Origin: a virus
Taxonomy: Duplodnaviria > Caudoviricetes
Virus record (IMG/VR): IMGVR_UViG_2934377003_000001
Span: 1 to 64,000 of that record
Direction: 5' to 3' (one strand)
DNA length: 64,000 bases
Shown here: positions 25,284-57,151 of the stretch, piece after piece
How positions within the stretch are numbered: the stretch's first letter is position 1
Layout: each line of letters begins with the position of its first letter
The notes under the pieces: model-generated
Database searches by the model: none
Told to the model about the DNA's origin: nothing
The model's input: only the letters and a program-made list of their open reading frames with translations
Translations under genes and position numbers: made by a program

Positions 25284-25286
25284 AGG

Positions 25287-29255: not shown

Positions 29256-29257
29256 CC

Positions 29258-30508: not shown

Positions 30509-30521
30509 AAGGAGATCCGTC

Positions 30522-32207
30522 ATGCCGCTGCCCCCGTCTGGTAACACGTCGTGGCCGCCGCCCGCCTTGGAGATTCCGCACGCCGACATGGATATGTGGC
30601 GGGCCTGGTACTCCGGCAACACCGATCACCTGGCGGCGGTGTATGGCGGGCCGGCGAATTACCGCAACAACCAGGTGGCCCGCGCGTTCTTCGAGGTGGA
30701 TCAGCGGCGCGCCGGGTCGGGTGAGTTGCGGACGTTTTGGGGTGCGGAGGTGACGCCGGGCCAGCAGTCGGCGAAGCTGCATGTGCCGATCGGCGCGGAC
30801 ATTGCGGAGCTGTCGGCGGATCTGTTGTGGGCGGATGTGCCGACGGTGACGGTGGACGCCGACTCGACGGATGCGGTGACGGCGAAGTCGACGGCGGCGC
30901 AGATCGGCCGGTATCTGGATGATCGTGGGCATGCGCGGATGCGGGAGGCGGCGGAGCTGACGGCCGGCCTGTCCAACGTGTACCTGCGGGTGGTGTGGGA
31001 CACGTCGTTGCGTCCGCGGCCGTGGACGGATGTGATTCAGCCTGAGGCGGTGGTGCCGACGTGGCGGTGGGGTGAGTTGGCGGAGGCGATCGTGTGGCGG
31101 GAGCTGGCTCCGCTGGAGGACGGGTCGAAGGTGTGGCGGCTGCTGGAGCATCACACGGCGGGTGTGATCGAGTACGGCCTGTATGAGGGCGGTGTGGGGA
31201 CGCTGGGGATGCGCGCGGACAGTCTGGGCGCGCATCCGGACACGGAGTATCTGGTGGCGCGCACGGATGCGCAGGGCAGGCAGGCGACGGGCGTCGACCG
31301 GCTGCTGATCACGCATCTGCCGAATGTGCTGCCGAACCGGGTGTGGGATGGCGTGCCGAATACGGCGCCGTTGGGCCGGTCGGATCTGTCGGGGGTGGAG
31401 CCGCTGATGGATTCGCTGGATGAGACGTGGTCGTCGTGGATGCGTGACCTGCGGCTCGGGAAGGCGCGGCTGCTGATCCCGCAGACGATGCTCGACTCCG
31501 ACGGCCCCGGCACGGGCGGCCTCTTCAACCTCGAGCAGGAAGTGCGGGTTGCCCTGTCGGGGCTGCTGGGCGGCGAGACGATGAGGGACTCGATCAGCGA
31601 GATCCAGTTCAAGATCCGGGTGGAGGAGCATGAGCAGACGTCGAAGGCGCTGCGTCTGCAGATCATGTCGTCTGCCGGGTATAGCGCGCAGCATTTCGGG
31701 GAGGCGGGGGCGGTCGCGGCGACGGCGACGGAGGTCGCGGCCCGTAAGGAGGAGTCGCTGACGACGCGTGGGACGAAGTTGCTGTATCAGCGGCCGGCAC
31801 TGCTGGATCATTTGACGGTGATGATGATGGTTGATGTCCGGCACTGCGGTGCGAAGGGTGTGGATCCGGCGGCGGAGTTGACGGCGTCTTGGCCGCAGGC
31901 TGTGCAGCCGGATCAGGAGGCGACGGCGCGCACCCTGTCGCTATTGGACGCGGCGGGGGCGATCTCGACGTTCATGAAGGTGAAGTGGCGGTCGCCGGAG
32001 TTGGATGACGCGGAGGTGGCGGCGGAGGTGGCGCGGATCCGCGCGGACAAGCAGTCTGCGACCCCGGCCGGGGACCCGTTCAACACCGGTGGGCGGCCGG
32101 GCGAGCCGGGCGACGAGAGCGCGGAGAGCGATGACGTCGAGGCCGGCGCGGATGAGGGCTTGGACGACGAGGAAGACGACGACGGGGCGGGGTTGAGGGC
32201 GGCGTGA
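30522..32207 (+). CDS. Portal protein
   Basis: After TerL, AAGGAG RBS, HLPN...LGRSD...LDETWSSW...ATATEV. Confidence 0.88.
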   Translation: MPLPPSGNTSWPPPALEIPHADMDMWRAWYSGNTDHLAAVYGGPANYRNNQVARAFFEVDQRRAGSGELRTFWGAEVTPGQQSAKLHVPIGADIAELSADLLWADVPTVTVDADSTDAVTAKSTAAQIGRYLDDRGHARMREAAELTAGLSNVYLRVVWDTSLRPRPWTDVIQPEAVVPTWRWGELAEAIVWRELAPLEDGSKVWRLLEHHTAGVIEYGLYEGGVGTLGMRADSLGAHPDTEYLVARTDAQGRQATGVDRLLITHLPNVLPNRVWDGVPNTAPLGRSDLSGVEPLMDSLDETWSSWMRDLRLGKARLLIPQTMLDSDGPGTGGLFNLEQEVRVALSGLLGGETMRDSISEIQFKIRVEEHEQTSKALRLQIMSSAGYSAQHFGEAGAVAATATEVAARKEESLTTRGTKLLYQRPALLDHLTVMMMVDVRHCGAKGVDPAAELTASWPQAVQPDQEATARTLSLLDAAGAISTFMKVKWRSPELDDAEVAAEVARIRADKQSATPAGDPFNTGGRPGEPGDESAESDDVEAGADEGLDDEEDDDGAGLRAA

Positions 32208-37715: not shown

Positions 37716-37916
37716 ATGGCGATCCGGGTGAGCGTCCAGGCGGCGACGGAGGACGAGTGCGTCGAAGGCCTCGCCCAGCTCGTGGATGCCGGGTTCCTGC
37801 CGGTGATGCTGCCCCGGTACCTCACCGACGGCCGCTGGATGGCGCGGGCGGTGCCGGCACCAGCGACGAAGGCCCCGGCCGCGGGTGGCGGTCGGGGCCC
37901 TGTCGTTTCGGGTTGA
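37716..37916 (+). CDS. Hypothetical protein
   Basis: Short ORF between minus-strand units. Confidence 0.5.
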   Translation: MAIRVSVQAATEDECVEGLAQLVDAGFLPVMLPRYLTDGRWMARAVPAPATKAPAAGGGRGPVVSG

Positions 37917-38219
37917 TCAGGTGGCCAAGTCCCGGTACTCGTCGGCCATGTCGCCCAGCCCCGCGAGGCACAGTGCCGCGCACTGCAGGAGTACCTCACG
38001 GCGTTGGGACTGCTCGTCGGAGGCTTCGGAGATCAGGCGGGCGGCGGATTTGAGGTCGTGGTGGCCGACGATCCCGGCCACCTCCAGATGATCGGCGACC
38101 GCACCCAACTGGGCGATGAACCCGGCCACGGTGGTGGCGGGGGTGGGCTCGTGGGCGAGGTAGGCGACGGCGTGCGCGTGCTGCTGGACGAGACCGTCGA
38201 CGGTGAACGTGGCGGGCAT
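37917..38219 (-). CDS. Hypothetical protein
   Basis: Last gene of the long leftward operon. Confidence 0.6.
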   Translation of the reverse strand: MPATFTVDGLVQQHAHAVAYLAHEPTPATTVAGFIAQLGAVADHLEVAGIVGHHDLKSAARLISEASDEQSQRREVLLQCAALCLAGLGDMADEYRDLAT

Positions 38220-38224
38220 GGGGG

Positions 38225-38440
38225 TCACCGGCCGGCGTTGTCGATGAGCCACCGGCCGTATGCGCGGTCGGCGTCGGCGTGGATGCCTGTCCGGTCGCTT
38301 CCGGCGGCGACGGCGGCTTCTACGGCGGGCTGCACGGTGCCGCGGTAGAAGTCGCCGGTGCGCTCACCGGCCCGCTCCCGCCGGTTCAGGTCGACGAGGG
38401 CGGCGACCGCCTTCCTTTCGAACTGCTGCTTGTCGGCCAT
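38225..38440 (-). CDS. Hypothetical protein
   Basis: AGGAG RBS. Confidence 0.6.
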   Translation of the reverse strand: MADKQQFERKAVAALVDLNRRERAGERTGDFYRGTVQPAVEAAVAAGSDRTGIHADADRAYGRWLIDNAGR

Positions 38441-38448
38441 GGTGTCTC

Positions 38449-38679
38449 CTACTGGTAGGCGGGCCCGTCGTATTCGACGGCGGTGATCTGGGCGGACGGG
38501 TTCTCCTGCTGGGTGCGGAGGACGTCGGCGACGAGACTGTCGAGGCTGTTCGTCGAGTTGAACGACAGCAACTTGCCGGTGCGCCGGTCGTACAGCCGGT
38601 AGTGCAGGTTGGTGTGCGTCTGACGGCGGACGGGCAGGGGCTTGCCGTTCCAGGTGTCGGCCATGGTCACCTGGCCCAT
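38449..38679 (-). CDS. Hypothetical protein
   Basis: GC3 bias; start may be 38664. Confidence 0.6.
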   Translation of the reverse strand: MGQVTMADTWNGKPLPVRRQTHTNLHYRLYDRRTGKLLSFNSTNSLDSLVADVLRTQQENPSAQITAVEYDGPAYQ

Positions 38680-38870
38680 CGGTGGGGCTCGTGGTCGGCG
38701 GCGGCGTCGAGGATGGCCATGGCGGCGGCCTGTCGGTCGAGTCCGGCGGCGACGGCTTCCTCGATGACCTGGTCGGCTTTCTTGCTGCTGCCGCGGCCGA
38801 GGAATCCGCCGCGCTGCAACTGGCGGCCGGCTTCCTGGATTTGGGCCGGGGTGGGCTTGGGCATGGTCAC
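38667..38870 (-). CDS. Hypothetical protein
   Basis: GTGA overlap. Confidence 0.55.
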   Translation of the reverse strand: MTMPKPTPAQIQEAGRQLQRGGFLGRGSSKKADQVIEEAVAAGLDRQAAAMAILDAAADHEPHRWAR

Positions 38871-39070
38871 TTCCCGATCGCGTTGCCGGGGGCCATGCGG
38901 ATCTCCCCGTAGGTGTCGAGTACGTCCTGGTGGTGCCGGTTGCAGAAGTACTTGCCGCGGGCCTTCGGGCGGGTGCAGAAGCGGTGGCCGTCGTTCTGCC
39001 GGTGGTCGACCTGGGTCTGGTAGCCGCAGGTCTGGCTGCTGCGGTCGGGTTCGGTGCGGGTGAAGCCCAT
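38867..39070 (-). CDS. Small zinc-finger-like protein
   Basis: C...C...CNRH; TGATG coupling. Confidence 0.6.
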   Translation of the reverse strand: MGFTRTEPDRSSQTCGYQTQVDHRQNDGHRFCTRPKARGKYFCNRHHQDVLDTYGEIRMAPGNAIGK

Positions 39071-39294
39071 CAGAGGCCCTTCCTTGCGGCCTTCCGGAAC
39101 CTCTTCGGCAGCTGCTCCTCGGCGTCGATGACGGCCTGGTTGAGGCGCTGGTACTCGGGCGTTTCGTGGGTGATTCCGGCGGCGGCTTCGCGGGCGGTGT
39201 TCTCGGCGAGGGCGGCAGACGCCTTGTGGTAGTCGGCGATCAGACGGTTCTCGTCGGCGTACACGGCGAGCTCGTCGCGGCTGGGCTTAGACAT
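39070..39294 (-). CDS. Hypothetical protein
   Basis: AGGAG RBS. Confidence 0.6.
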   Translation of the reverse strand: MSKPSRDELAVYADENRLIADYHKASAALAENTAREAAAGITHETPEYQRLNQAVIDAEEQLPKRFRKAARKGL

Positions 39295-39303
39295 GGTGGT
39301 CTC

Positions 39304-39819
39304 CTACTTGTTGTGGGTGTGGGTGTGCTGGGTGGCTCGGTCGAAGGCGGCGAGAACGGGTGCGGCGGTTCGCTGCTGGGCGTTCCAGCTGGGGATCGTG
39401 TCGGCCGCAGGGGAGCGTTCCTGGATGGCGTCGAGGAGCGCCACGCACGCGTCGTGCGTGGCATCCCGGTCGCCGCGGGATTCGAGGCGGATCGCCTGGA
39501 TGGGGCAGACGGCGCCGGCTTCGTCGCGGACGGCGTCCCGGCACCAGCCCGCGGTCTCGATCCGAACGCGGGCCCGGTGGAGGAGGTCGGCGACGGGCGT
39601 CCGGTACGGGGACGGCGAGGCGGCCGGTGCGGGCAGGGGTGCTTCGGTGATGTGCGGAACCTGCCCGGCGCCGGGCAGGTGCGCGGTGTTGACCTCGAAC
39701 TCGACCGCGGCTTCGTCGAGGCGGGCGCTCATGACGGCGCCGGTCAGGGCGAGTCGGGCGTCCAAGTCGAGGACGGGCGGGGCGTGCGGACTTGCGGGCG
39801 CGCGGGTGGTCGTGGGCAT
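39304..39819 (-). CDS. DUF6197-like protein
   Basis: LLHRARVRIETAGWC...GAVCPIQAIR...IPSWN. Confidence 0.65.
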   Translation of the reverse strand: MPTTTRAPASPHAPPVLDLDARLALTGAVMSARLDEAAVEFEVNTAHLPGAGQVPHITEAPLPAPAASPSPYRTPVADLLHRARVRIETAGWCRDAVRDEAGAVCPIQAIRLESRGDRDATHDACVALLDAIQERSPAADTIPSWNAQQRTAAPVLAAFDRATQHTHTHNK

Positions 39820-39911
39820 GATGAGGGTCTCTCCGTCGATCTTCTGGTGGGCGGGTGAGACCGGGGCGCCCCTGGTCGCTGCCAGGCATTCGAGGGGCGC
39901 CCCGGGCGGAG

Positions 39912-40094
39912 CTACAGGTCTTCGCCGAAGCGGACGGTCATGGTGGCGTCGAGGAGTTCCGCGGCCTCGCTGCCGTCGGTGGTGCGAGTGTCGAAGCGGG
40001 CCGTGACCTCGCGGATGATTCGGTCGGTGGTGGCGCGGTCGCCACGCTTCTTCGCCGCCACGTAGTCGCGGACGGTCTGGTGGGTGTACTGCAC
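39912..40094 (-). CDS. Hypothetical protein
   Basis: AAGGAG RBS. Confidence 0.6.
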   Translation of the reverse strand: MQYTHQTVRDYVAAKKRGDRATTDRIIREVTARFDTRTTDGSEAAELLDATMTVRFGEDL

Positions 40095-40121
40095 GGTGAT
40101 CTCCTTCGGGTTGGGGTGGGG

Positions 40122-40529
40122 TCAGATGCGCCAGCCGCCGAGGCGGCGACGGGTCTTCGGGTTGGAGCCCTGCGCGGCCTGCTTCTCCAGGCCCCGCAAC
40201 TCGGCCTCGTCCAAGATCCCCTCGTAGTTGTCCGAGCCCATCGGGCCCGCAACCTGCGGGGCCGGGTCGGCGATGTTCCGCATGCCGCGCGGCGGCGCGT
40301 CGAACACCGGGCCGCGGGTCTGGCACAAGGTCACCGCGCTGTATCCCGACTCCGTGCACGGGCTCCCCGTGAACGGAAGCCGGGACGTGAACCGGTACTC
40401 GCCGTACAGGTGCGCGTCCTCGTAGGGCGCGGCCCGCCGGCTGATGTCGTACACGACGTAGTACGACTTCCCGAGCTCCACATCGCGGGCGAACTTCTTC
40501 GCCTGGCTGGCACTCCACGACTTCGACAT
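40122..40529 (-). CDS. Hypothetical protein
   Basis: GGAG RBS, GC3 bias. Confidence 0.7.
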   Translation of the reverse strand: MSKSWSASQAKKFARDVELGKSYYVVYDISRRAAPYEDAHLYGEYRFTSRLPFTGSPCTESGYSAVTLCQTRGPVFDAPPRGMRNIADPAPQVAGPMGSDNYEGILDEAELRGLEKQAAQGSNPKTRRRLGGWRI

Positions 40530-40568
40530 AGATGATCTCCGCTTCCGGTATGGGATGGTTTGCTCTCG

Positions 40569-40729
40569 CTGCTCAGGACTGCTCAGCGGGAGAAAGTGCA
40601 GGTCGGGTCTGCTCAGCCGCCTGATCAGGCGCTGCTCAGAGCAGACGCTGAGCAGGTCGTGAGCAGCAGCCTGAGCAGCTGTGACCTGCGGGTTTGTGGC
40701 CTGATCAGGGCTGAGCAGGCCCTGATCAG
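40569..40729. repeat. Array of eleven 8-bp CTG(CT/AG/AT)CAG repeats, clt-like transfer locus
   Basis: CTGCTCAG x4, CTGAGCAG x3, GTGAGCAG x1, CTGATCAG x3 in 161 bp directly after the traB stop. Confidence 0.85.
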
Positions 40730-40751
40730 GGGTACATACTTCGCATAGCGG

Positions 40752-43007
40752 TCACAGCAGGTGGCGGAGCCGATCACGCTTGAAGCCGCGCGGATTCTTC
40801 TCCTCGCCGATCGGACCCAGCGTGATCGGCGACCCAGCACCCGCCTGCTTCATCAGGGCCTTGAACGCGACGGCATCCATGTCGCCGTAGGCATCCGGGT
40901 CGTACTCCTGCAGCGCGGCAAGAAGCGGCTCGGTGATCATCCGGTCGACGTCCGCCTTCTCCATCACGTCGACCGCATCCTCGACCGCAGCCCGTGCCGG
41001 CCCGTCCGTCAGCTCCGAGCCGGCGGGCGGCTCTGCGTCGCACAGGCGCAGCAGTTGCTCCCAGGTGAGAAGCTTGACGGGCGCCGGCTTCTTGATCTGG
41101 TCGTCCTTGTCGTACTCGGGCTCGCAGTACTCGGGGAGGTCGACGTTCTTCATCGCGTCGAGGCTGTCCTGGTCGGGCTCGACCAGGCCGGCGTCGCACC
41201 TCTCCTGCGCCAGCTTGCGCAGCGTGGCGGAGGGCGTCTCGTGGACGGCGTACTCGATCGGCTCGTCCGGTCGGCCGGGCACGCCCTGGATGTAGACGTG
41301 GCCAGCGTCCTTAGGGTCGGTGTCGGTGGCGGGAGACAGCTTGTGCGGCATCCAGCCCTCGGCGACTGCCCCGTCTCCGAAGACGGCGCGGGTGTCGCCG
41401 ACCTTGCAGGGCCCGACCGCCTTGAAGGCGATCATCTGGGCGATGTTCTCGCCGAGGTACAGCTTGGTGCCGCCCTGCGAAGCGATGATCAGCGTGACGG
41501 CCTCCTTGCGGCCGACCAGCAGCAGATCGAAGGCCAGCTTCTTCGCCAGCTCGGATCCCTTGGGGAACTCGTCGAAGATGATCGTGAAGTGCGGGTGCTC
41601 CTTACTGACCTTCCACTTCTTGCCCATGCCGAGCTTCGCCCGCAGCCGGGCGCGACCCTTGGACAGCATCAGGAAGAACAGCAGGACTGCTTCGATCTGC
41701 TCGTGGCTGCGCCCGGTGACCCGGACGGCGTCGTGGAGGTCCTCCAGACCGTCGCCGTGGGGGTCGAGGTCGATGGTGATGTTGTCGTAGCAGGCGGTGG
41801 TGATCTCACCGATGGCCTGCAGCAGGCCGGTCTTGCCGCCGCCTGACGCCGCAACGACGAGCCCCATGACCCCAGCGAACGCGGCGTCGAGGGGTTCGCC
41901 GCCCACAGAGGATCCGAGACGGCTCTTGCCCGTGATGGAGATCGACTTGGGGGCGCGATGGGGCAGCCCGGGGGCGGTGGCGAACGGGTCTCCCTCGACG
42001 AGGCGCAGGACCGCGCACGCCCGTCGCTCCAGGATGGGCTGGGGCCGGACACCGTTGGCTTTCAGGTCGAAGCGGGTCTCGAGGTCCCCGCTCTTCGCGA
42101 TGATCGCTTCGGGGGTGCCTTCGCCGACGCGGACGACGCACTGCCAGCCCCACGGCTGCCGCTGCACATCGGCGACCTCGACGATCGGCACGTTCTCGGC
42201 GCGGGCGGCGAGGAGGACGCATTCAGCGAGCTGCTGCGGCGTGGACACGTTCCTGAGCGGGAACGGCTTGGCGCCTTCGTCGAGCTGCTCGACGTTCATG
42301 ACGACGTGCGATCCGACGCTCATCGCTCCCCCGGCCTGCGTCGGGTCCGCCAGGAACGTGGCGGGCAGGCTGACCGGGGCCTGACCGAAAGGGGCCCCCA
42401 CCTCCTTGGCCTCTTCGACGTGCGGGCGGGCCAGGAACCACCAGCCGAAGCCGCCGGCCGGGATCGACAGCAGCAGGAGGGCGGGTTCGGCGGCGATGCC
42501 GTGCAGGTAGCCGTAGCCTCCCGCGAGGACGGCGGCTACGCGGGTGGCCTTCTTCGTCCAGCGGGCACGGTCCAGTTCCCGGTTGGTGGGCGGCATGACG
42601 GCGACCGCGGGTCCTTCCGCAGCGCGGGTTTCGACGCGGGCCTGGAGCGCGGCGAGCTCGCCCTTGAGCCGCTCGATCTGGGGGCTGGTCTCCTCGCCCT
42701 GCCGGGCGGCGTCGATGCGGGCCTGTGCGAGGCGGCTGTTGACTCGGCCGACCTGGCGCAGGAGTTCGTCATCTTGGCGCTGCGCCTGGCGACGCTTGCT
42801 GTCGACGACCTGTTCGGCGAGCTTCTGGTCGTCGATGTCGGCGGTGGCGAACCAGCCGGCGAGGCGCTGCCGGACGTTCTGCTTCTGCTCACCGTAGGCG
42901 GCCTTGGCCTGCAGCTTCACGGTGTCAATCCGCCGCTTACGGGGGATGGTGGGCGGGTTGACGGGCATGGGCGGGATCTGCTCGAAGGGTTCGGTCTCGG
43001 TGGCCAC
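40752..43007 (-). CDS. traB: FtsK/SpoIIIE-like DNA translocase, TraB-like
   Basis: TM hairpin, Walker A AASGGGKT, Walker B IIFDE, GRKEAVTLIIASQ, C-terminal winged-helix-like tail ending NPRGF. Confidence 0.8.
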   Translation of the reverse strand: MATETEPFEQIPPMPVNPPTIPRKRRIDTVKLQAKAAYGEQKQNVRQRLAGWFATADIDDQKLAEQVVDSKRRQAQRQDDELLRQVGRVNSRLAQARIDAARQGEETSPQIERLKGELAALQARVETRAAEGPAVAVMPPTNRELDRARWTKKATRVAAVLAGGYGYLHGIAAEPALLLLSIPAGGFGWWFLARPHVEEAKEVGAPFGQAPVSLPATFLADPTQAGGAMSVGSHVVMNVEQLDEGAKPFPLRNVSTPQQLAECVLLAARAENVPIVEVADVQRQPWGWQCVVRVGEGTPEAIIAKSGDLETRFDLKANGVRPQPILERRACAVLRLVEGDPFATAPGLPHRAPKSISITGKSRLGSSVGGEPLDAAFAGVMGLVVAASGGGKTGLLQAIGEITTACYDNITIDLDPHGDGLEDLHDAVRVTGRSHEQIEAVLLFFLMLSKGRARLRAKLGMGKKWKVSKEHPHFTIIFDEFPKGSELAKKLAFDLLLVGRKEAVTLIIASQGGTKLYLGENIAQMIAFKAVGPCKVGDTRAVFGDGAVAEGWMPHKLSPATDTDPKDAGHVYIQGVPGRPDEPIEYAVHETPSATLRKLAQERCDAGLVEPDQDSLDAMKNVDLPEYCEPEYDKDDQIKKPAPVKLLTWEQLLRLCDAEPPAGSELTDGPARAAVEDAVDVMEKADVDRMITEPLLAALQEYDPDAYGDMDAVAFKALMKQAGAGSPITLGPIGEEKNPRGFKRDRLRHLL

Positions 43008-43064
43008 AAGCTGTCCTTTCCTGGGTCGGGGCGGGGCCCCGGGTTGGGGCCCCGCGGGGCGTGG

Positions 43065-43655
43065 TCAGCCGAGGTTGCCGAGCATGGTGCCCAGCGATCC
43101 GACGAGCGAGTTGGTGAGCTGGCTACCCATGGCGCCGATGACAGTCCCGGACAGGGCGATCCCGAGCAGGCCACCGAGGACCGCGTCGCCAGCCTTGAGG
43201 CCACTGTGCTTGACCTTGACGAACACGATGATCGCCAGGATGAGGATGGCGACGACGCCGACACCGATGGCGCCTCCGCCGGCCTGGGTCTGGTACTGCT
43301 GCTGGGTTCCGGCGGGCATCTGCTGCTGCGGGTTGACGAGCTGACTGCCGCTGCCGCTGTCGGGGGTGAGGTCGTTGGTGATGCCGTCGCCGCTGCCGGG
43401 CTCGGTGTCAGCCTTGAACCCGGCGACGACGGAGATCTGCTCGGTGGTGGCGTGGTGGCCGTAGCCGCCCATGCCGGTGATCCGCAGGGTGCGGCCGTCC
43501 GGCAGGGTCACCGGCGCGGTGACCGCCCGCTCGACCACGTGCTGGGTGGCGGCGGAAGCCGGCGACGGGGCGGCCACGGTGATGGTGGCGGCACCGCCGA
43601 GGACGGCGACCGCGGCACTGCCCGACACGGCGACACGACGAAGGGTGCTGGTCAT
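43065..43655 (-). CDS. Exported/membrane protein of the transfer module
   Basis: Signal-peptide-like start, two C-terminal TM helices, upstream of traB. Confidence 0.7.
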   Translation of the reverse strand: MTSTLRRVAVSGSAAVAVLGGAATITVAAPSPASAATQHVVERAVTAPVTLPDGRTLRITGMGGYGHHATTEQISVVAGFKADTEPGSGDGITNDLTPDSGSGSQLVNPQQQMPAGTQQQYQTQAGGGAIGVGVVAILILAIIVFVKVKHSGLKAGDAVLGGLLGIALSGTVIGAMGSQLTNSLVGSLGTMLGNLG

Positions 43656-43678
43656 TTCGATCTCTCCAGAAAGGTGGG

Positions 43679-45001
43679 TTAGTTGGCGTTCGGGCGAGTG
43701 CTCTTGGCGGCCACAGACGGCTGCTCGAGGCGCGCCTGAGTCTTGGCTGCGGGGGTGTACGGCTGCGTGTCTCCGGCCCGTCGAGTGGGCGGCGTGCCAC
43801 CGTTGTTTCGGCGTCCGTCGGGGGCGTTCGGGTCCTTCTTCTGGCGGGGACCCTTTTGGGAATTGATCAGCGACAACGAGCCCAGAACGGGGGCTTCGGT
43901 GACGGTCCGCATGTGGGCCTGTGCGGCGCGCGACTGGGCTTCGATTTCGGGGCGGATTCCGACCTTCGTGCAGCCCGTCACGAGGGCCCACGACTCAGCC
44001 CAGATCTGCTCCGTGACGTACTGCGAACCACGCGCGGAACGAAGCGCGTCGGCGACCTCCCACACGTCGGGATGCTTGTCCTTGCGGTCGTCGTCGCGGC
44101 GCTTCTGATCCTCCGCGGCGCGGGCCTCCGCGGCGGCCTTCTCAGCGGCAGCCCTCGCCTCGGCGGCTTGCTTCTCGGTGCGCGCCTTCTCCTCCGCGCG
44201 GGCCTTCTCCAAGGCTGTCGTCTTGGCCGCCCGGCGCTCCCGGAAGGACGGGATCCCGTCGGCCTTCTGAGCGATGCCGTGCTCGTAGGCCATCAGGACG
44301 ATCGGCCCGCCCAGGGAGGCGATCGCACCGATCAAGCCGGCGTTGAAACCGATGTGATCGTTGGTCAGCCCGCCGTGCAGGTTGATCGCGGCGGCGATCG
44401 CCGCGGACAGCATGATGCCGACCCGGTAAGGGGCGACGTCCCGCCGGTGAGCGACCGCCCAGGCGGCTCCAAACGCCAGCACCAGCGCGAGGCCTTCGAG
44501 GAGGGCCGGCGCAGCGATCAGGAAGGGCCGCTCGCGGTCCCAGAAATGCATGAACTGCACCGGGGCGGCGATGATCAGGCCGACGGCGTAGATACCGCGG
44601 GCACCCCACTTCCACCAGCGCTCCGACCGCTCCTGCTCTTCCAGCACCTGCGCCTCGGCGGCCTCCTCGTCGGCGGCAGCCTTCTCCGCCTTCTCCTTCT
44701 TGGCCTGCGCCTCGGCGGCCTCCGCTGCCTTCTTCGCGACGTGCGCCTTGTGGTCAGCCTGGTCTTTCTCCAGCCGCATGCGCTTACGCTCGTTACTGAT
44801 CCGCAGCTCTTCGGCCTGCTCGCCGGCGAGGATCCCGGCGGCCTTCGCGTCTCCCTCCGCCTTGATGCGGGCGGCTTCGGCTTCGGCATCGGCGCGTTTC
44901 CGGATCGCCTCCGCCTCGGCCAGCGCCACCGGGTCGAACCGGGGCTCGGGCGAGGCAACGGCGCGGCCGTTGACCTGCTTCTCGACGGATACGGCGGTCA
45001 C
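43679..45001 (-). CDS. SpdB/DUF2637-like spread protein
   Basis: Coiled coil, four TM helices (APALLEGLAL), second coiled coil. Confidence 0.65.
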   Translation of the reverse strand: MTAVSVEKQVNGRAVASPEPRFDPVALAEAEAIRKRADAEAEAARIKAEGDAKAAGILAGEQAEELRISNERKRMRLEKDQADHKAHVAKKAAEAAEAQAKKEKAEKAAADEEAAEAQVLEEQERSERWWKWGARGIYAVGLIIAAPVQFMHFWDRERPFLIAAPALLEGLALVLAFGAAWAVAHRRDVAPYRVGIMLSAAIAAAINLHGGLTNDHIGFNAGLIGAIASLGGPIVLMAYEHGIAQKADGIPSFRERRAAKTTALEKARAEEKARTEKQAAEARAAAEKAAAEARAAEDQKRRDDDRKDKHPDVWEVADALRSARGSQYVTEQIWAESWALVTGCTKVGIRPEIEAQSRAAQAHMRTVTEAPVLGSLSLINSQKGPRQKKDPNAPDGRRNNGGTPPTRRAGDTQPYTPAAKTQARLEQPSVAAKSTRPNAN

Positions 45002-45057
45002 GGTGATCGGTGTCCTTCCAGGGCTCAGGGGGGGGGTGGTGCGGTGGAGGTGGTTGG

Positions 45058-45264
45058 TCAGCGCCGACGGCGGCGGCGGGTGGACCGATAGCCGAACGGG
45101 CCAGGCAGGTCGGCGGAGTAGGTGTCGCGGCCGGTGGAGCTGCGCGTCCACCGGGGCACGGACCCGCCGCCCAACGTGATCGACCAAGACCGGCGGTTCA
45201 GGTTGATGCGGACGCCGGGCAGGATCCGGAAGCTCTTGCGGAACGTGACCGGCACGGCGATCAC
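45058..45264 (-). CDS. DUF4236-like protein
   Basis: FRKSFRILPGVRINL...S.TLG motif. Confidence 0.75.
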   Translation of the reverse strand: MIAVPVTFRKSFRILPGVRINLNRRSWSITLGGGSVPRWTRSSTGRDTYSADLPGPFGYRSTRRRRRR

Positions 45265-45461
45265 GCCTCCCGCAGCTGGTCGGGCGTGTACGACCGGTAG
45301 CCCTTGATCGCCTCGACGGCCCAGCTGTCGATGCTCCTCACGGACACGTCGCCGCCGGACAGGGCCCCGCCATCCACGACGATGCCCGTCTTGCCGACGG
45401 TGCCCTCGTTCTCCGGGCCCGCCGCGACCACGACCACCAGGTCGCCCTTCTTGAAACGCAT
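45261..45461 (-). CDS. Small SH3/KOW-like protein
   Basis: FKKGDLVVV...GKTGIV...QLR. Confidence 0.6.
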   Translation of the reverse strand: MRFKKGDLVVVVAAGPENEGTVGKTGIVVDGGALSGGDVSVRSIDSWAVEAIKGYRSYTPDQLREA

Positions 45462-45541
45462 GGAGTTTCCTCTCGGTTGGGTGAAGTGCTGGCGCGCGGT
45501 GCCCTCACCGCCCGTGAGCGACGGGCGGTGAGGACAGCCGG

Positions 45542-45736
45542 CTACTTGGTGGGCGCGCAGTCCGGGCAGTTCGGGTCGTCGCAGAGGGTGATGCGTCCGC
45601 AGCCGATGGCCTTGGACGCCCGGTTGGCGGCCCGACTGCCGCGCTCCCCGGCCACGGTGAGGCCGATCTGCTGCAGCCGACGCGCGATCCCCTCGCGCGG
45701 GTCCATCTGGTTGGTCTTCTTGGTCTTCTTGGGCAT
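45542..45736 (-). CDS. Small Cys-rich protein
   Basis: GAGGA RBS, CDDPNCPDC. Confidence 0.55.
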   Translation of the reverse strand: MPKKTKKTNQMDPREGIARRLQQIGLTVAGERGSRAANRASKAIGCGRITLCDDPNCPDCAPTK

Positions 45737-45865
45737 GTGAGTCCTCTCGGATCAGTGATCGGATGCTGGTGCGTGCCCTGGTCTGCTTTGAAGCGGTAGA
45801 CCCGAGTTCGGTCGACCAGGGCTGGGGTGCCGGGCGCGATGGGGGCACGCCCGGCAGTGGGTGGG

Positions 45866-46093
45866 TTAGCGGCGGGGGATGAGAGTCTTCGGGTCGGGGC
45901 CGAGCGGGCGGGGCGGCAGCCCGCGGCCCGTCCGCTGGACCGTCTTGAAGCGGCTCTCCCGGTCCTCACGGACCGCCCGCTCGAACCGGTCGAGGAGCCC
46001 GGGGTACAGGGCGTCGAGGGCCTCGGCCTCCACCATGCGCCGGGCAAGATCGGCGTCCAGGTCGGCCAGGAGTCGCTCGTTACGGCCGGGCAT
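45866..46093 (-). CDS. Hypothetical protein
   Basis: AAAGGA RBS. Confidence 0.6.
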   Translation of the reverse strand: MPGRNERLLADLDADLARRMVEAEALDALYPGLLDRFERAVREDRESRFKTVQRTGRGLPPRPLGPDPKTLIPRR

Positions 46094-46229
46094 GTCAGTG
46101 TCCTTTCGGTTGGGTGATTGGGTGGGTGGTGCGTGCCCCGGGCCCGATTCGCTCGGGCACCGTCGCGGCTTGGCCGGGGCCGGGGTGCCGGGGCGCAGTG
46201 GGGGTTTCCGCGCCCCGGCGGTCTCGGGG

Positions 46230-46436
46230 TCAGGCCGGGATGGCGGTGCAGTGGTCGGCGTGCTCCTGTGCCCACCCGGTGAGCACGGTGCGGTATTCGA
46301 CGCCGTGGTCCCTGGACCACTGGCATCCGCGGCAGGTGGCGACGGATCGGCGAGGGCCGTCCTCGATGTCGACGGTGGCGTTGCGGTCGCCGGTCAGGGC
46401 GGCAGCCTGGGTGAGGATGCGGGTGGGGGCAGGCAC
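46230..46436 (-). CDS. Small zinc-finger protein
   Basis: CRGC...AQEHADHC; AAGGAG RBS. Confidence 0.6.
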   Translation of the reverse strand: MPAPTRILTQAAALTGDRNATVDIEDGPRRSVATCRGCQWSRDHGVEYRTVLTGWAQEHADHCTAIPA

Positions 46437-46437
46437 G

Positions 46438-46851
46438 CTAGGAACTCCTTGAGTCGGTGTGGATGGCCGGGTGGCGCTGTACGACGGGGCGACGGATGTC
46501 GCGGTGGGTGACGGTGACGGTGTGGCCGCGGCGGCGGAGCCGGCGGGCGAGCTGGTCGGCGACGACCACCGAGCGGTGCCTTCCGCCCGCGCAGCCGGAG
46601 CCGATGACGATCCGGTCGGCGGACGGGCCGGAGGCGTAGGCCTGCACCTGCCGGGTCGTGGCCGCCAAGAGCTGCCGGATGCCGGGGGTTCCGAGGACGG
46701 CCCGGCGGACAATCCGGTCGCGGCCGGTGAGCTGCCGCATCCGCGGGTTCACGTGCGGGTCGCGGAACGCCCGCCGCAAATCCAGCACGACGTCGGCCTG
46801 CGGGGCAGCGGCGTGCAGGAACCCGAACGACACGATCTCCACGGTGGCCAT
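46438..46851 (-). CDS. Stand-alone RapZ C-terminal domain protein
   Basis: IVSFGF, DLR..RDP, LTG, GCAGGRHRSV, THRD. Confidence 0.8.
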   Translation of the reverse strand: MATVEIVSFGFLHAAAPQADVVLDLRRAFRDPHVNPRMRQLTGRDRIVRRAVLGTPGIRQLLAATTRQVQAYASGPSADRIVIGSGCAGGRHRSVVVADQLARRLRRRGHTVTVTHRDIRRPVVQRHPAIHTDSRSS

Positions 46852-47078
46852 CAGGCGGCGGCGGGCTCGTTGAATCCGTCGAGTTCGGCCAGCAGGTCGG
46901 GGTCGACGGCGAGCCGGATCGTCGCAACCCGCGCCCGGTCCCCGCGGGCCACGGCGGCGGCGTAGTCGGCGAACAGGTCCGAGACGCTGAGGATCGACGC
47001 GTCGGCGACAGTCATCGAGGCGCGGGCCACGCCACCATCGGCGGCAGCATGGTCGGCAGAGAACAGGTACGGAGACAT
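46851..47078 (-). CDS. Hypothetical protein
   Basis: TGATG coupling to the next gene. Confidence 0.55.
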   Translation of the reverse strand: MSPYLFSADHAAADGGVARASMTVADASILSVSDLFADYAAAVARGDRARVATIRLAVDPDLLAELDGFNEPAAA

Positions 47079-47114
47079 GGGTGGCCCTCTCAGGGTCAGA
47101 AGTGCGGGGGTGGG

Positions 47115-47318
47115 TTACAGCTGGTCGGGCTGCAGGTCGAAGAACAGGACCGCGGCGGCCCCGTAGTGCTGGGCCTGCTGCTCGTACAGGCGCCGGAACA
47201 CGTCGTGACGGGAGGCCCTGGCGGGCAGGGTGATGACGCCGGTGTCGCCGACGGTGCCGCGGTCGGTCTGCAGGGTCAGGACCCAATGCCAGTCAGTGGT
47301 CTGGTCGGAAGCGGACAT
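47115..47318 (-). CDS. Hypothetical protein
   Basis: GAGGAG RBS; WVLTLQ...VLFFDL. Confidence 0.6.
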   Translation of the reverse strand: MSASDQTTDWHWVLTLQTDRGTVGDTGVITLPARASRHDVFRRLYEQQAQHYGAAAVLFFDLQPDQL

Positions 47319-47405
47319 GCCTGATCTCCTCGGCGGATGCGGTGGGGTTGGGGGCCGCGGGGGCGGGACGGGGGTGAACACCGCCCCCGCGGCGGAACCG
47401 GGGTG

Positions 47406-47534
47406 CTACTTGGGCCGGTTGGCGGCGATCCGGGCGGCCTCCGCGGCAGCGGCTGCGGCCTTCGCCGCCTCCATCCGCTGCCGGGCCTGCTCGGCGAGCG
47501 CCTTCGCCTGCGCGCCCTGCTCGGCGGGGCTCAC
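47406..47534 (-). CDS. Small Ala-rich helical peptide
   Basis: GTGA overlap, 42 aa. Confidence 0.45.
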   Translation of the reverse strand: MSPAEQGAQAKALAEQARQRMEAAKAAAAAAEAARIAANRPK

Positions 47535-47770
47535 AGGGTCACCCCCTGCGGGTGCGGGCGCGGCGGGCGGATTGGCAGCGGCTCCTTCGCCCGCCCGTGC
47601 TCCGGGTCGGGCTCGCCCTCCAGCACAACCAGGAACGCGTCATCGGCCAGCGACATCACAACCGTCGCCGGGGTACCGGAGGCGGTCAGCTCGGCGGCCT
47701 TCTCCTCCGCCGGCCACGACCCGCGCGGATTGCCCGCCAGGAAGTCGGCCAGGATCTCGCGGCCCGCCAT
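47531..47770 (-). CDS. Hypothetical protein
   Basis: TGATG coupling. Confidence 0.55.
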   Translation of the reverse strand: MAGREILADFLAGNPRGSWPAEEKAAELTASGTPATVVMSLADDAFLVVLEGEPDPEHGRAKEPLPIRPPRPHPQGVTL

Positions 47771-48066
47771 CACGCGCCGCCGATCAGCTTGAGCTGGCCG
47801 GCCTCCGCGAGAACCGACCGCGCGGCGGCCATGACGTCCTCCGCGGCGGCCAGCGAGTCCGCCTGCAAGTCCGTCATCCGACCGGACGCGGCGACACCCG
47901 CCAGCTGCGCGGCGTGCACGGCGGCCGTCTCGTACTCGGCGACCGCCTGAACCAGCGGGAAGTGCGGGAGGGTACGGGCCAGCGCGGCGGCGGCAGCCGG
48001 CGTGAGCGGGGCGGTACCCGCCGTGTCGGCGCACGTCGGCGCCGGGATAAGCTTCTTCGTAGCCAC
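47770..48066 (-). CDS. Hypothetical protein, first gene of the transfer operon
   Basis: GAGGAG RBS before GTG. Confidence 0.65.
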   Translation of the reverse strand: MATKKLIPAPTCADTAGTAPLTPAAAAALARTLPHFPLVQAVAEYETAAVHAAQLAGVAASGRMTDLQADSLAAAEDVMAAARSVLAEAGQLKLIGGA

Positions 48067-48095
48067 AGGATCTCCTCGTTAGAACCTGGTGGTGA

Positions 48096-48187
48096 GGCCC
48101 TGGCCAGGGAGTGGAGTCCCTGAGCTGGGGCCGCTTTTTTGGTGCAGCCGGTGGAGCGACTGCGGGAGCTTCGGGCGGTGGAGCGCC
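48096..48187. promoter_or_regulatory. Structured leader with three hairpins sharing a GTGGAG/CTCCAC loop
   Basis: Loops at 48111-48116, 48151-48156 and 48178-48183, each closed by a different stem. Confidence 0.65.
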
Positions 48188-48193
48188 GTTCGC

Positions 48194-48258
48194 TTCAACA
48201 CCATACTGAAGACGTTCTGAGTCAGTGTCAACACCGTCTTGAGAACTGGCGTGTTGAC
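48194..48258. promoter_or_regulatory. Divergent promoter/operator
   Basis: GTCAACAC (48227-48234) and GTGTTGAC (48251-48258) inverted pair, extra TCAACAC near 48195, TTGACA on the minus strand. Confidence 0.55.
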
Positions 48259-48273
48259 TTCTACTGTGGGTCC

Positions 48274-48609
48274 ATGACAGATGCGTTCACGGAGTCCCTG
48301 GAGGCGCGAGTCGCCGAGATTGCAGCCATCAAAGACCTTGTCGAGCGCGGCCTCGCCGCCCGCGAAGCGCGGGAACACATGGCAGTACGCGACCGCGAGC
48401 TCTACGCGATCCAGAGGGCTGTAGTCCAGGAACTGAAACCGGGGCGCACCTGGGAAGAGGTAGGCCGGCTGTTCGGGCGTTCTCACGCCTGGGCAGAAGC
48501 GCTCGCCACGGCGCGGAGTTCGAAGCGACGAAAGAGTGAGCATGCCGCCCAGCAAACGCCCACCGCGCGCGAGACAGAAGGACACGGCGAGGACACCAGC
48601 ACGCCATAA
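48274..48609 (+). CDS. HTH regulator, candidate repressor of the transfer operon
   Basis: RTWEEVGRLFGRSHAWA HTH; divergent from the operon. Confidence 0.7.
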   Translation: MTDAFTESLEARVAEIAAIKDLVERGLAAREAREHMAVRDRELYAIQRAVVQELKPGRTWEEVGRLFGRSHAWAEALATARSSKRRKSEHAAQQTPTARETEGHGEDTSTP

Positions 48610-48690
48610 AAGCACCACCCCGACACGGGGGCGACACCAACCCGTCGCCACCATGCCAGACCCGAGCGCCACGACACGGGAGCCCCCATT

Positions 48691-49329
48691 GTGGACGTCG
48701 TAGAAACCTGGACCGGCGCATCGGCCTGCCTCCTACAGCAGGCGATGCGGATGACGAACGAGGCGTTCGCCGAACACCTCGGAATCAGCGAACGGACCAT
48801 CAGCCGGTGGCACGCCAGCCCCGGCATGGTCCACCGGACCGAGGTACAGCAGATCTTGGACATCGCTCACAGGGAGGCGAAAGAAGACGTGCGACACCGC
48901 TTCGCGCTCCTACTGCGCCCCCCTGCGCCACGCCTCGAAGCCCAGGCACTGCGGGTAGCGATAGCGGTCGTCGTCCGAGGCGACGACATCCTGCTGGTGT
49001 GCCGGCGCGGCGACGGCGAACTCCGCTGGCAGTTCCCGGCGGGCATGGTCAAGCCGGGCGCCGACCCGGCAACGGTCGCGGTACAGGAGACGCACGGCGA
49101 GACCGGCGTCCACTGCACGATCCGTGAGCAGCTCGGCGAACGCGTCCACCCGGTCACCGGGGTGGTCGCCTCGTACTACCTGGCCGACCATCTGGCGGGC
49201 GACGCGTCGAACCGGGACCCGCTCGAGAACGTCGACGTCGCCTGGGTACCCCACACCGCCGTGACCCGCTTCATTCCTGCGGAACAGCTGTTCCCGCCGA
49301 TCTTGACCGCCTTGGAGGCGACCGTATGA
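48691..49329 (+). CDS. XRE-type HTH fused to a degenerate Nudix domain
   Basis: [15 protein letters not shown]; Nudix box [22 protein letters not shown] lacks several conserved acidic residues. Confidence 0.85.
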
Positions 49330-49739
49330 CGACCGACACCAGCACCGACAAGCCCGGCATCTCTGCCGCGATCATCGTCCGGGACGGCCGGGTGCTGATG
49401 GTGCGCCGCGCCGTGAAGGAGGGCGAGCTGATGTGGCAGTTCCCGGCGGGCGGCATCGAGGCCGGCGAGTCGCCGGAGGAGGCGGCGGTGCGGGAGACGC
49501 TGGAGGAGACGGCGCTCACCGTGAAGGCGGTACGGCTGCTGGGGCAGCGGGTGCATCCGAAGACGGGCCGGGAGATGTCGTACACGGCGTGCGATGTCGT
49601 GGACGGCGAGGCGCGGGTAGCGGACGACGAGGAGCTGGACGCGGTCGCCTGGGTCGCCCACGGCGAGATCGCCGACTACGTGCCCTACGGCCTGTTCGAG
49701 CCCGTCCAGGAGTACCTGGATGATGCCCTGCCGCACTGA
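49326..49739 (+). CDS. Nudix hydrolase
   Basis: Near-canonical box [21 protein letters not shown]. Confidence 0.92.
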
Positions 49740-49994: not shown

Positions 49995-50031
49995 ACCTGT
50001 AACCCCGACCCCGTCAAGGATGGAGTTCTCC

Positions 50032-50325
50032 ATGAAGAGTAGCGGCACCACGGCCTTAGCGCCCGCCTCTTTGTCGACACATCACCTGTTGCACGCGCCA
50101 CTTCCCGAGCTGCTCGCCGAGCACGGCGTGGAGGTGGTGGAGCTGGAGGCGGACCCCGGGTTCACGGGCGGCTCCTTCGTCCGTAGCGACGGTTCTGTGC
50201 TATTCGTGCGTCCGGCGGACCGGCCGGTCGTCGAGTGGGAGATCACGGCGCGCGCCTTGTTGGGCCGGGTGTTGCGGGTGGCGTTGCCGCCGATGCCGTC
50301 GCCGTTCGAGGTGACCGAGGTGTAG
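50032..50325 (+). CDS. Hypothetical protein
   Basis: GGAG RBS; LLHAPLPELLAE...FTG. Confidence 0.65.
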   Translation: MKSSGTTALAPASLSTHHLLHAPLPELLAEHGVEVVELEADPGFTGGSFVRSDGSVLFVRPADRPVVEWEITARALLGRVLRVALPPMPSPFEVTEV

Positions 50326-50374: not shown

Positions 50375-50490
50375 GCCGTCGGGTAGCCGGCGGCTGCTCC
50401 CCGCGTCAGCAGGGGTGTTCCTGCTTGGTACTTCGAGTGGTCCCCGCAGTGCGGGGGCGAGCCCCGGCCTGAGGGTCGGGGCTCTTTCCT
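50375..50490 (+). ncRNA. Candidate structured small RNA ending in an intrinsic terminator
   Basis: Four consecutive hairpins, the last GAGCCCCGGCC-TGAG-GGTCGGGGCTC followed by TTT. Confidence 0.3.
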
Positions 50491-56986: not shown

Positions 56987-57151
56987 TCAGGTCGAGGGCG
57001 GTCTGGCCGTCGCAGTGGACGACTGCGGGTTCGGCCACCCGGGCAGGCGCCGGACGGGCCGGGCGGGGTTGAGTCGGCGGGCACAGACCGGTCCGAGGCC
57101 GGTGGGCGACGGGCGGCGTAGGCGCCGGCCGCACGCCGTGCAGCGGGACAT
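56987..57151 (-). CDS. DUF6011-like zinc finger protein
   Basis: CTACGRRL...GLGPVC. Confidence 0.65.
   Translation of the reverse strand: MSRCTACGRRLRRPSPTGLGPVCARRLNPARPVRRLPGWPNPQSSTATARPPST

Follow-up and report, generated by a model that had tools for sequence, protein, structure and literature searches.

Organization of the transfer-like block

We analyzed a 64,000-nt stretch of DNA (hereafter, the window), which is the first 64 kb of the single 77,686-bp virus record IMGVR_UViG_2934377003_000001, a Streptomyces provirus with a G+C content of ~70%. The analysis concerned a block of genes that resembles the DNA transfer cassettes of Streptomyces plasmids. Genes were called by the third-position G+C bias (GC3), and the 110 translated open reading frames (ORFs) of the record were scanned against Pfam. 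A virion gene set, a repressor, and an integrase were found within this one record, and the element was thus identified as an excised provirus of a temperate siphophage.

The main part of the block is a leftward operon at 37917-48066 (minus strand) with 20 ORFs. As stated in the preliminary description of this locus, the operon spans ~10 kb and combines an FtsK-like ATPase, a repeat array at the 3' end of the ATPase gene, a four-transmembrane (four-TM) protein, and many small genes. The ATPase, a predicted double-stranded DNA (dsDNA) translocase of 751 aa, is encoded at 40752-43007 (minus strand), and its stop codon is directly followed by an array resembling a clt locus (40535-40751). The gene for a 135-aa protein (40122-40529, minus strand) comes next after the array here and in every related locus; 37 such loci were fetched, nine from species genomes and 28 from IMG/VR, giving 38 with the window. 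Upstream of the ATPase gene lie the genes for a 187-aa protein that begins with a signal-like segment and has two hydrophobic segments toward its C-terminus (43065-43628, minus strand) and for a 490-aa SpdB2-like four-TM membrane protein (43679-45151, minus strand). Eight small genes encoding 59-137 aa (45261-48066, minus strand) occupy the proximal part of the operon, and nine encoding 60-171 aa (37917-40529, minus strand), including the 135-aa protein and a DUF6197 protein (39304-39819, minus strand), the distal part. Just past the last leftward gene, a terminator-like GC-rich hairpin of 12 pairs (37871-37899) marks the left edge of the block. One proximal gene (46438-46851, minus strand) encodes a 137-aa protein consisting of the RapZ C-terminal domain alone (PF22740, 1.7e-29; phrog_18111); it is common to only one of the nine genome loci (L010).

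The operon is faced by a rightward unit, for which the preliminary description had listed HTH (helix-turn-helix), HTH-Nudix, and Nudix genes. The latter two were found as described: an HTH-Nudix fusion of 212 aa (48691-49329, plus strand; Nudix, 6.1e-14), divergent from the operon, and a Nudix hydrolase of 137 aa (49326-49739, plus strand; Nudix, 4.1e-25). The separate HTH gene is probably the 111-aa ORF that heads the unit (48274-48609, plus strand), and its HTH was not confirmed: the Pfam scan of this ORF gave nothing above the cut-off, and the domain is hinted at only via a homologue (HTH_23, 0.018, below the cut-off). Homologous 84-aa ORFs stand in the same place in two related loci (L003 and L005). 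A conserved 101-aa ORF (50020-50325, plus strand) closes the unit, and another terminator-like hairpin (50459-50484) lies beyond it. No GntR-type Kor repressor was found in the block by Pfam, the HTH being fused to the first Nudix domain instead. The position of the Nudix hydrolase gene is comparable to that of pif in pSAM2, whose product, a Nudix protein, confers conjugal immunity and is found together with the Kor repressor; a Nudix gene is present in 13 of 20 integrative and conjugative elements of actinomycetes (AICEs) (PMC2440964). The promoter scan returned 0 sigma-70-like sites, a result that is uninformative for Streptomyces.

The ATPase and its relatives

The ATPase contains a Walker A motif (GGGKT) and a Walker B motif (DE) and matches the 'FtsK/SpoIIIE-like' family phrog_12531 (3.7e-66), and it has no match in Pfam or NCBIfam, even at E 10. 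A search of one host genome with PF01580 likewise hit 11 places, the prophage gene not being among them. Among 7,999 candidates scored, 300 relatives were obtained at E<=1e-5, and the best 120 of these are 61-100% identical to the query; among the matches listed, most are Streptomyces proteins annotated as 'hypothetical protein', and none has a precomputed Pfam domain. An identical ATPase is present on a 646-kb contig. The comparison with 1.84 billion cluster representatives yielded only 234 clusters at E<=1e-3, which indicates a narrow family. Its close members have no Pfam match and four plasmid-like members carry an N-terminal FtsK-gamma domain, while distant members of ~600-650 aa show FtsK_SpoIIIE, two of the 38 scanned also having a C-terminal winged HTH, which is the classical Tra layout.

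The relationship to known translocases emerged with a profile of 79 diverse family members (A1). Against the PDB, A1 matched FtsK motors first (2ius, 2.1e-23; 2iut, 6.7e-22), followed by EccC/EssC and TcpA; a single-sequence phmmer search of the PDB with the ATPase gave nothing at E 1, so that FtsK was reached by the family profile only. An hhalign comparison of A1 with Tra of pIJ101, the product of the transfer gene of that plasmid (PMC4447253, PMC3583192), gave a probability of 99.2% (E 9.9e-20, 295 columns). Four residues, K392, R452, D479, and E480, are invariant in the 79 sequences; from their positions they are assigned as the Walker A lysine (K392), the arginine finger (R452), and the Walker B residues (D479/E480).

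The AlphaFold model of the ATPase has a mean predicted local distance difference test score (pLDDT) of 88.3. In it, a coiled coil spans residues 34-137 and a helical hairpin residues 142-193; beyond a disordered linker come an alpha/beta domain (236-337), the motor (~360-606), and the C-terminal domain (649-750). Foldseek placed FtsK motors first (2e-12, TMt 0.65-0.69) and TcpA of pCW3 next (9e-12). The N-terminal hairpin, modeled with a pLDDT of 71-89 and weakly hydrophobic at approximately residues 155-193, reaches a maximum Kyte-Doolittle mean of 1.45, and homologues exceed the threshold of 1.5 at approximately residue 145; TraA of pWTY27 has two N-terminal TM segments (PMC3583192). The C-terminal domain, folded alone with a pLDDT of 85.4, is probably, not securely, a winged helix (residues 664-751) by its modeled fold: the rows listed by VIA are mostly winged-helix proteins (Z 4.9-6.9, root-mean-square deviation 2.5-3.8 A over 64-82 residues). 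The same region (residues 640-751, encoded at 40755-41090) also drew EF-hand (centrin/calmodulin) rows with E 0.002-0.5 around the segment YDPDAYGDMD, and one source names a relative 'EF-hand domain-containing protein'.

In a quick maximum-likelihood tree, the window ATPase grouped with its prophage relatives (support 100), and this group fell inside a clade (support 100) that also holds Tra of the plasmid pFP1 (NC_006912.1) and the ATPase of the lytic phage Wofford. Outside this clade are the classical members, pIJ101 Tra, and the FtsK of the host. We treat the tree as supportive only, since it is midpoint-rooted with long branches. By tblastn, 51 Streptomyces/Kitasatospora plasmids matched the ATPase at E<=1e-3, all with <60% identity (29-45% in the 30 listed), and pIJ101 was reached at E 5. 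By sequence and predicted fold, the ATPase has an FtsK-type motor and belongs to the plasmid Tra family. The profile search and phylogeny proposed in the preliminary description, with their matches to the FtsK and TcpA folds and to pIJ101 Tra and the grouping with pFP1 Tra, bear out the plasmid-Tra homology behind its name 'TraB'; the name itself is loose, as the FtsK_SpoIIIE cut-off is missed and the kinship with pIJ101/pSVH1-type proteins is only distant.

The clt-like repeat array

The 217-bp spacer after the ATPase stop codon contains 10 exact CTG[AC]TCAG sites (40569-40729), or 12 slots when variants are counted, and only four further such sites occur in the rest of the 77,686-bp record. 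Counted strand-wise, the octamer was observed 19 times in the window compared to 4.45 expected, and 0 of 100 shuffles reached 19. The array consists of seven forward and five reverse slots about a central dyad, with the consensus CTGCTCAG or CTGATCAG, and its core (40598-40689) is framed by the inverted anchors GCAGGTC...GACCTGC. This anchor pair occurs once in the window against 0.07 expected. As a single strand, the array folds strongly (z -7.43).

An array directly follows the ATPase stop codon in all 38 loci, and the arrays are collinear: two or three forward octamers, the anchor GCAGGTC(A), and four forward octamers lead to the central dyad, after which two or three octamers in reverse orientation precede the inverted anchor (T)GACCTGC, itself followed by another two reverse octamers. 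All 38 loci have the first anchor in exact form, and 35 have the exact pair with a 60-90-nt gap, the other three (L016, L047, and L056) having one-base anchor variants. The slot consensus differs between loci, with CTGCTCAG in 24, CTGATCAG in one, a CTG[AC]TCGG-like form in four, CTGCTCGG in three, and CTGCTA[GC]G/CTGGTCGG-like forms in six. Within one array, many slots carry the same variant base; the repeats therefore evolve in concert, as would be predicted if a single factor recognized them.

The six CTGCTA[GC]G/CTGGTCGG-like (CTA/GGTC-type) arrays all accompany a 'QLG' motif near the ATPase C-terminus, where the other 32 loci have TLG, SLG, or GIG, and the three CTGCTCGG arrays go with diverged ATPase C-termini. 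This covariation is suggestive only, because four loci break the rule and the loci share descent. A general covariation between octamer class and either the ATPase C-terminus or the 135-aa protein encoded downstream was tried as a candidate and set aside as partly consistent, given these four loci.

Arrays of the same design were found in the plasmids pFP1 and pRVR1 (NZ_AP018366.1), where they extend over ~190-220 bp directly after the tra stop codons and consist of the anchors CGCAGGTCA...TGACCTGCG and forward-then-reverse octamers. The anchor type GCAGGTCA/TGACCTGC is common to the phage and plasmid arrays, and the octamers are each plasmid's own (CTCTAC[AG] in pFP1 and CGGAACCG in pRVR1). 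Among the features of the array, this shared design carries the most weight and indicates that the cis element is inherited together with the ATPase across ~30% protein identity. The array is a putative clt, an element-specific loading site beside its Tra gene. For comparison, the clt of pWTY27 comprises 16 bp within traA and 159 bp downstream of it; it has repeats of both the direct and the inverted kind, and TraA binds to it (PMC3583192). The TraB protein of pSVH1 reads 8-bp repeats (PMC4447253).

A second GCAGGTC...GACCTGC pair was noted in one species-genome locus (L026 5423-5505; G003:C6, ~450.4 kb), ~5 kb past the integrase end of the prophage, where it may mark a neighboring Tra-type element.

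The SpdB2-like membrane protein

The gene of the 490-aa membrane protein is located two genes upstream of the ATPase gene. The protein was described earlier as four-TM and SpdB-like, and we indeed found four hydrophobic segments at approximately residues 183-291, with Ala/Glu-rich helices on either side, a coiled coil, and a C-terminal domain. A counterpart lies upstream of the ATPase in all 13 loci with enough upstream sequence, and in 11 of these 13 the 187-aa signal-segment protein is encoded between the two.

By BLASTP, the membrane protein matched the DUF2637 protein of pFP1 (2e-7), and an hhalign comparison of 14 phage proteins with three plasmid DUF2637 proteins gave a probability of 99.3% (E 3.8e-20) over a 110-column membrane core, so that the TM core is homologous to the plasmid proteins. 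NCBIfam returned nothing for this protein, and tblastn searches gave no match in the phage collection and two weak records among plasmids. We take DUF2637 to be SpdB2, in view of the position of its gene beside tra. The matches of the ATPase (99.2%) and of the membrane protein (99.3%), together with the anchored array after tra in pFP1 and pRVR1, substantiate the plasmid kinship that had been proposed for the block. SpdB2 has been described as a four-TM protein with an N-terminal coiled coil and a C-terminal domain, encoded beside tra (PMC4447253).

Residency of the block in a temperate phage lineage

The preliminary description assigned the module to the phage itself and named an integrase, RepSA, and an att pair around the block as signs of an independent element. 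None of these was found: no integrase, excisionase, or Rep family was detected among the block ORFs in the Pfam, PHROGs, and NCBIfam scans, no att-like direct repeat flanks the block, and its G+C content resembles that of the surroundings.

It had also asked whether related phages keep the block at the same locus. When 109 genes of the record were compared by tblastn with 100-kb contexts of four ATPase-bearing genomes, all four prophages showed the same gene order, namely early genes, Nudix pair, cassette, diverged tail genes, and left-end genes. The Nudix pair, including the HTH-Nudix fusion, is present in three of the four contexts, and an integrase lies at the end in three of the four. The TerL protein of the window had no match in any of five genomes holding the ATPase. 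The prophage of S. olivaceus NRRL B-3009 has an ATPase with 100% and an integrase with 99% identity to those of the window record, and its virion module is wholly replaced (HK97 capsid, SPP1 portal, Terminase_7 small subunit, and a different tube).

Relatives of the block are also carried by 28 IMG/VR viral records, of which 12 are rated at least 90% complete. Among these 12, TTP_17 tube proteins occur in eight, SPP1 portals in eight, and HK97 capsids in 10; at least one of the three families is present in 11, the 74-kb record L015 having none of them. One relative record of 61,186 bp has direct terminal repeats, is rated 100% complete, and encodes an HK97 capsid. A megablast search with the block against 50,697 phage records gave no match.

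The presence of the same locus in prophages with different virion modules and in viral records indicates resident equipment rather than a one-off insertion. The gene comparisons support the view that the block resides as a module in a mosaic lineage of temperate Streptomyces siphophages with genomes of approximately 55-88 kb, in line with the earlier assignment.

Window positions 7896-32207 were also compared with a prophage (L017/L018; G001:C1:280001-320000) whose ATPase is 100% and whose integrase is 99% identical. Many early genes of the two are 83-100% identical and the virion modules are entirely different, with Phage_capsid_4 and Terminase_6N in the window versus an HK97 capsid and Terminase_7 in the relative, a clean exchange of the whole module.

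Comparison with known transfer systems

The theta-type plasmids pFP1 and pRVR1 have the same gene order as the phage block, with a DUF2637 protein, a small gene, and a large Tra ATPase. The matching 870-aa ORF of pFP1 follows the DUF2637 protein and aligns with residues 247-724 of the ATPase (E 3e-57, 32% identity); overall, the identity to the Tra ORFs of the two plasmids is 30-32%. The plasmid proteins carry an N-terminal FtsK-gamma domain, whereas the phage ATPase does not. In pFP1, a divergent GntR gene stands upstream of the operon, in the place taken by the HTH-Nudix pair in the phage element. Finally, pFP1 and pRVR1 are plasmid replicons with their own octamers, whereas the present element is an integrated phage. 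The large Tra ORFs of pFP1 (L037 6921-9533) and pRVR1 (L039 ~18800-21470) are missing from the PLSDB gene tables, and annotation-based surveys would therefore overlook them.

In the systems of pSVH1, pIJ101, and pWTY27, which the block resembles in layout, a single FtsK-like hexameric pump reads short repeats beside its own gene, and the spd genes form an operon of small genes (PMC4447253, PMC3583192). The sequence relation to these systems is remote, and the phage array differs in being dyad-symmetric with fixed anchors; pSVH1 was compared by description.

Virion formation and conjugal transfer are already known to be joined in one Streptomyces element, pZL12/phage ZL12 (Zhong et al., 2010; PMC3583192, PMC4487206), whose transfer needs one main tra gene together with two genes next to it (cited in PMC3583192). 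pZL12 is kept as a plasmid with ParA/ParB, and its syntenic relative pSLE1 has ParAB (PMC4487206). The present element, with its integrase and repressor, is set apart from pZL12 by description, and the Pfam scan of the 110 ORF translations of the record detected neither a Par nor a Rep family.

The AICE pSAM2 (korSA-pif-traSA-spd) is similar in having a Nudix gene beside a Tra ATPase operon and a prophage-like integrated state (PMC2440964). In contrast to AICEs, the block has no RepSA/RepAM, int-xis, or GntR-type Kor and contains an HTH-fused Nudix and a second Nudix gene, and the element as a whole is ~78 kb with a full virion gene set.

ATPases of the same subfamily, which belong to phrog_12531 and to the same tree clade, are also encoded by phages isolated on Streptomyces, namely Karimacvirus and its relatives (89 records). 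Their identity to the window ATPase is 34-37% over residues 200-615 in the 40 matches listed, and in all 89 records less than 80% of the query is covered. The lytic phage Wofford has its ATPase gene on its own in a group of tRNA genes; its stop codon coincides with the start of the following gene, and neither an array nor an SpdB2-like neighbor is present; the ATPase alone is thus no proof of transfer.

FtsK-like genes of Streptomyces phages have been annotated, and they are mentioned without tests or an assigned function in the available parts of three reports (bioRxiv 10.1101/2024.02.16.580700, PMC11536984, PMC13587820). Thoma et al. (2015) suggested that phage homologues of SpdB2 might spread phage DNA. 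No paper describing the complete cassette and array in integrated prophages was found in a search that did not cover subscription journals and supplements. The main text of the Samy prophage paper, its supplement aside, contains no occurrence of FtsK, translocase, Nudix, or SpoIIIE, and the available part of the AICE survey of Choufa et al. has nothing on Tra genes in prophages.

Proposed mechanism and alternative explanations

We are confident that the block is resident phage equipment of plasmid-Tra ancestry. The best explanation overall, to which we assign a probability of roughly 0.6, is that it is a resident module homologous to the tra-clt-spdB2 cassette of pFP1/pRVR1-type plasmids and moves phage DNA. 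That the job of the module is to move this DNA between compartments or between cells is a reading toward which we lean slightly. We consider capsid-free spread a well-founded hypothesis, derived from the comparisons above. Somewhat short of even odds, we propose that this widespread Streptomyces lineage of integrated temperate phages is dual-mode, forming virions and also using a plasmid-derived Tra pump, a phage-specific clt, and an SpdB2-like pore to move dsDNA across cross-walls and into neighboring hyphae. The same tentative reading includes two proposals on the array. In the first, the anchored dyad design (GCAGGTCA/octamers/TGACCTGC) may be a previously unrecognized modular type of loading site common to plasmids and phages; in the second, a conserved component of the machinery may recognize the fixed anchors, and the octamers may set the specificity for the element.

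From the homology and anatomy described above, we infer binding, expression, substrate, and direction of transport as follows. After induction or infection, a membrane-associated ATPase hexamer would load on the array of circular or replicating phage DNA, probably via its C-terminal winged-helix-like domain. Together with the SpdB2-like pore protein and small partners, it would pump dsDNA across septal cross-walls to neighboring compartments, and the DNA could possibly also enter touching hyphae. The phage might in this way spread in the mycelium ahead of its virions or independently of them. A role in regulating the system or in immunity, like that of Kor and Pif, would fall to the HTH-Nudix/Nudix unit.

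Streptomyces grows as a compartmented mycelium, and the proposal bears on the route by which infecting phages and induced prophages move within it. If the proposal is true, viral DNA could spread from compartment to compartment or from cell to cell without lysis or receptors, by a contact-dependent, capsid-free viral route suited to a multicellular host. The boundary between phage, AICE, and plasmid would be blurred, and the view of host range, infection containment, and gene flow in soil actinomycetes would be altered. Searches of plasmids and phages for loading sites recognized by this Tra subfamily could use the anchor-plus-octamer array as a sequence signature. Direct tests are feasible in laboratory strains, given the small number of well-defined components (one ATPase, one array, and one membrane protein).

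Several observations weigh against the proposed transfer function, which is argued from homology and gene order. It is not obvious why a quiescent, integrated prophage would need transfer, and the GntR-type Kor repressor is not present. The ATPase misses Pfam FtsK_SpoIIIE (PF01580), its N-terminal hairpin is weakly hydrophobic, and its C-terminal domain reached a best Foldseek E of 0.25 and a best VIA Z of 6.9, which is below the level that the tool calls secure; the profile of this domain (residues 640-751) found no winged-helix match in the PDB and weak EF-hand rows. The four CTG[AC]TCGG (CTGATCGG-type) arrays accompany ATPase C-termini that are identical over the last 30 residues to those of the CTGCTCAG majority. 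The membrane protein has no similarity to SpdB of pIJ101 and no match to Pfam DUF2637 (PF10935) at E 10, nor do any of its 13 relatives match at E<=0.05. In addition, isolated lytic phages carry a related ATPase without the array or the partner, and the ATPase may serve other ends.

Among the alternatives, handling of DNA within the cell appears doubtful to us. Here, the pump and the array would save replicating or excised phage genomes from trapping or loss at closing cross-walls or sporulation septa, or deliver copies into prespores, as a segregation aid for the phage similar to FtsK or SffA rather than a means of transfer to new cells. This explanation draws on the motor fold, which is that of FtsK, on the retention of the ATPase alone by lytic phages, and on the layout of the array, as octamers converging and diverging about a dyad recall the polarity of FtsK-orienting polar sequences (KOPS) around dif. 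Papers on Streptomyces phages also link FtsK-like phage genes to host development or replication, without tests. On the other hand, the nearest relatives of the ATPase that have partners are plasmid tra cassettes with an SpdB2-like pore protein, and the plasmid tra machinery moves DNA across cross-walls (PMC4447253). Mechanistically, handling within the cell overlaps with intramycelial spreading and differs mainly in purpose.

It also seems improbable that the array is not the loading site of the pump and instead serves as a replication origin with iterons, a partition site, or an operator or terminator bound by another protein. The strong single-strand fold would suit such a site, as would the location of the array in front of the conserved 135-aa gene, and hairpin-forming 8-bp repeats are the binding sites of RepAM proteins in AICEs (PMC2440964). 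The octamer class, moreover, does not track the ATPase C-terminus in four loci. Against this stands the constant pairing of array and ATPase stop codon, which holds in each of the 38 phage loci and in both plasmids examined, across ~30% protein identity and unrelated neighbors. The clt mapped in pWTY27 occupies the same position and has direct and inverted repeats (PMC3583192), and six of six variant arrays accompany a substitution in the ATPase C-domain.

A role in defense or exclusion, in which a domesticated Tra with a Nudix immunity partner would block plasmids, AICEs, and phages or expel foreign DNA, is distinctly improbable. Exclusion genes are common in prophages, and the PHROGs category of the ATPase family is 'moron, auxiliary metabolic gene and host takeover'. 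Nudix proteins of the Pif type confer conjugal immunity (PMC2440964). However, an element-specific array that evolves in concert and is retained on the phage genome points to this genome itself as the substrate, and no defense family was found among the module genes in Pfam, PHROGs, and NCBIfam, the PADLOC library not having been searched. Lastly, an independent AICE or mobilizable island that inserted in the prophage and hitch-hikes with it is highly unlikely: the Tra-like ATPase, the SpdB2-like protein, and the Nudix genes are typical of AICE conjugation and regulation (PMC2440964), but the block lacks an integrase, an excisionase, RepSA/RepAM, and an att pair, keeps a constant position across different virion modules and in 28 viral records, and has the G+C content of its surroundings.

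Other features of the provirus

The virion genes of the provirus lie to the left of the transfer-like block. The tail-to-capsid genes (7896-27720, minus strand) encode a pectate-lyase/GDSL tail protein, a GH46 tail protein, a Gp37-like protein, Dit, a tape measure protein of 1955 aa, the tail tube, and the capsid. They are followed by a possible small terminase gene, terL, and a portal gene with a weak match (28740-32207, plus strand), after which come small genes and then the block. To the right of the block, the early genes at 51-75 kb (minus strand) encode a SLOG protein, a LuxR-type protein, a C5-methylase, an HNH protein, an AAA_24 protein, a PD-(D/E)XK exonuclease, and an RNase T-like exonuclease. 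The HTH repressor and the tyrosine integrase are encoded outside the window, at 75412-77686 (plus strand) of the record. No convincing att repeat for the whole prophage and no tRNA gene were found in the stretches compared, the left boundary lying outside the compared region.

At 26932-32207, the plus-strand terminase and portal genes diverge from the minus-strand capsid-tail genes, which is an unusual split of the late region, and no gene was called in 27720-28740. Two large tail-associated proteins, encoded within 7896-12925, have enzyme domains: one of 885 aa combines a pectate-lyase-like beta-helix with a GDSL lipase, and one of 783 aa contains a glycoside hydrolase family 46 (chitosanase) domain (3.9e-52). 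Among the early genes, ~2.2 kb at 58355-60615 is without a GC3-called gene and may contain a disrupted or unusual gene; this region adjoins a C5-cytosine methylase gene (57151-58134) and a 52-aa ORF (58197-58355) that resembles a DNA methyltransferase C-terminus.

At the left end of the window (667-3347), a GmrSD_C/HNH nuclease-like protein, a 435-aa protein of unknown function, and a small serine recombinase are encoded. The 435-aa gene recurs in the related G001 prophage with 89% identity, and the left-end recombinases of the G001 and G003 prophages are only 40-44% identical.

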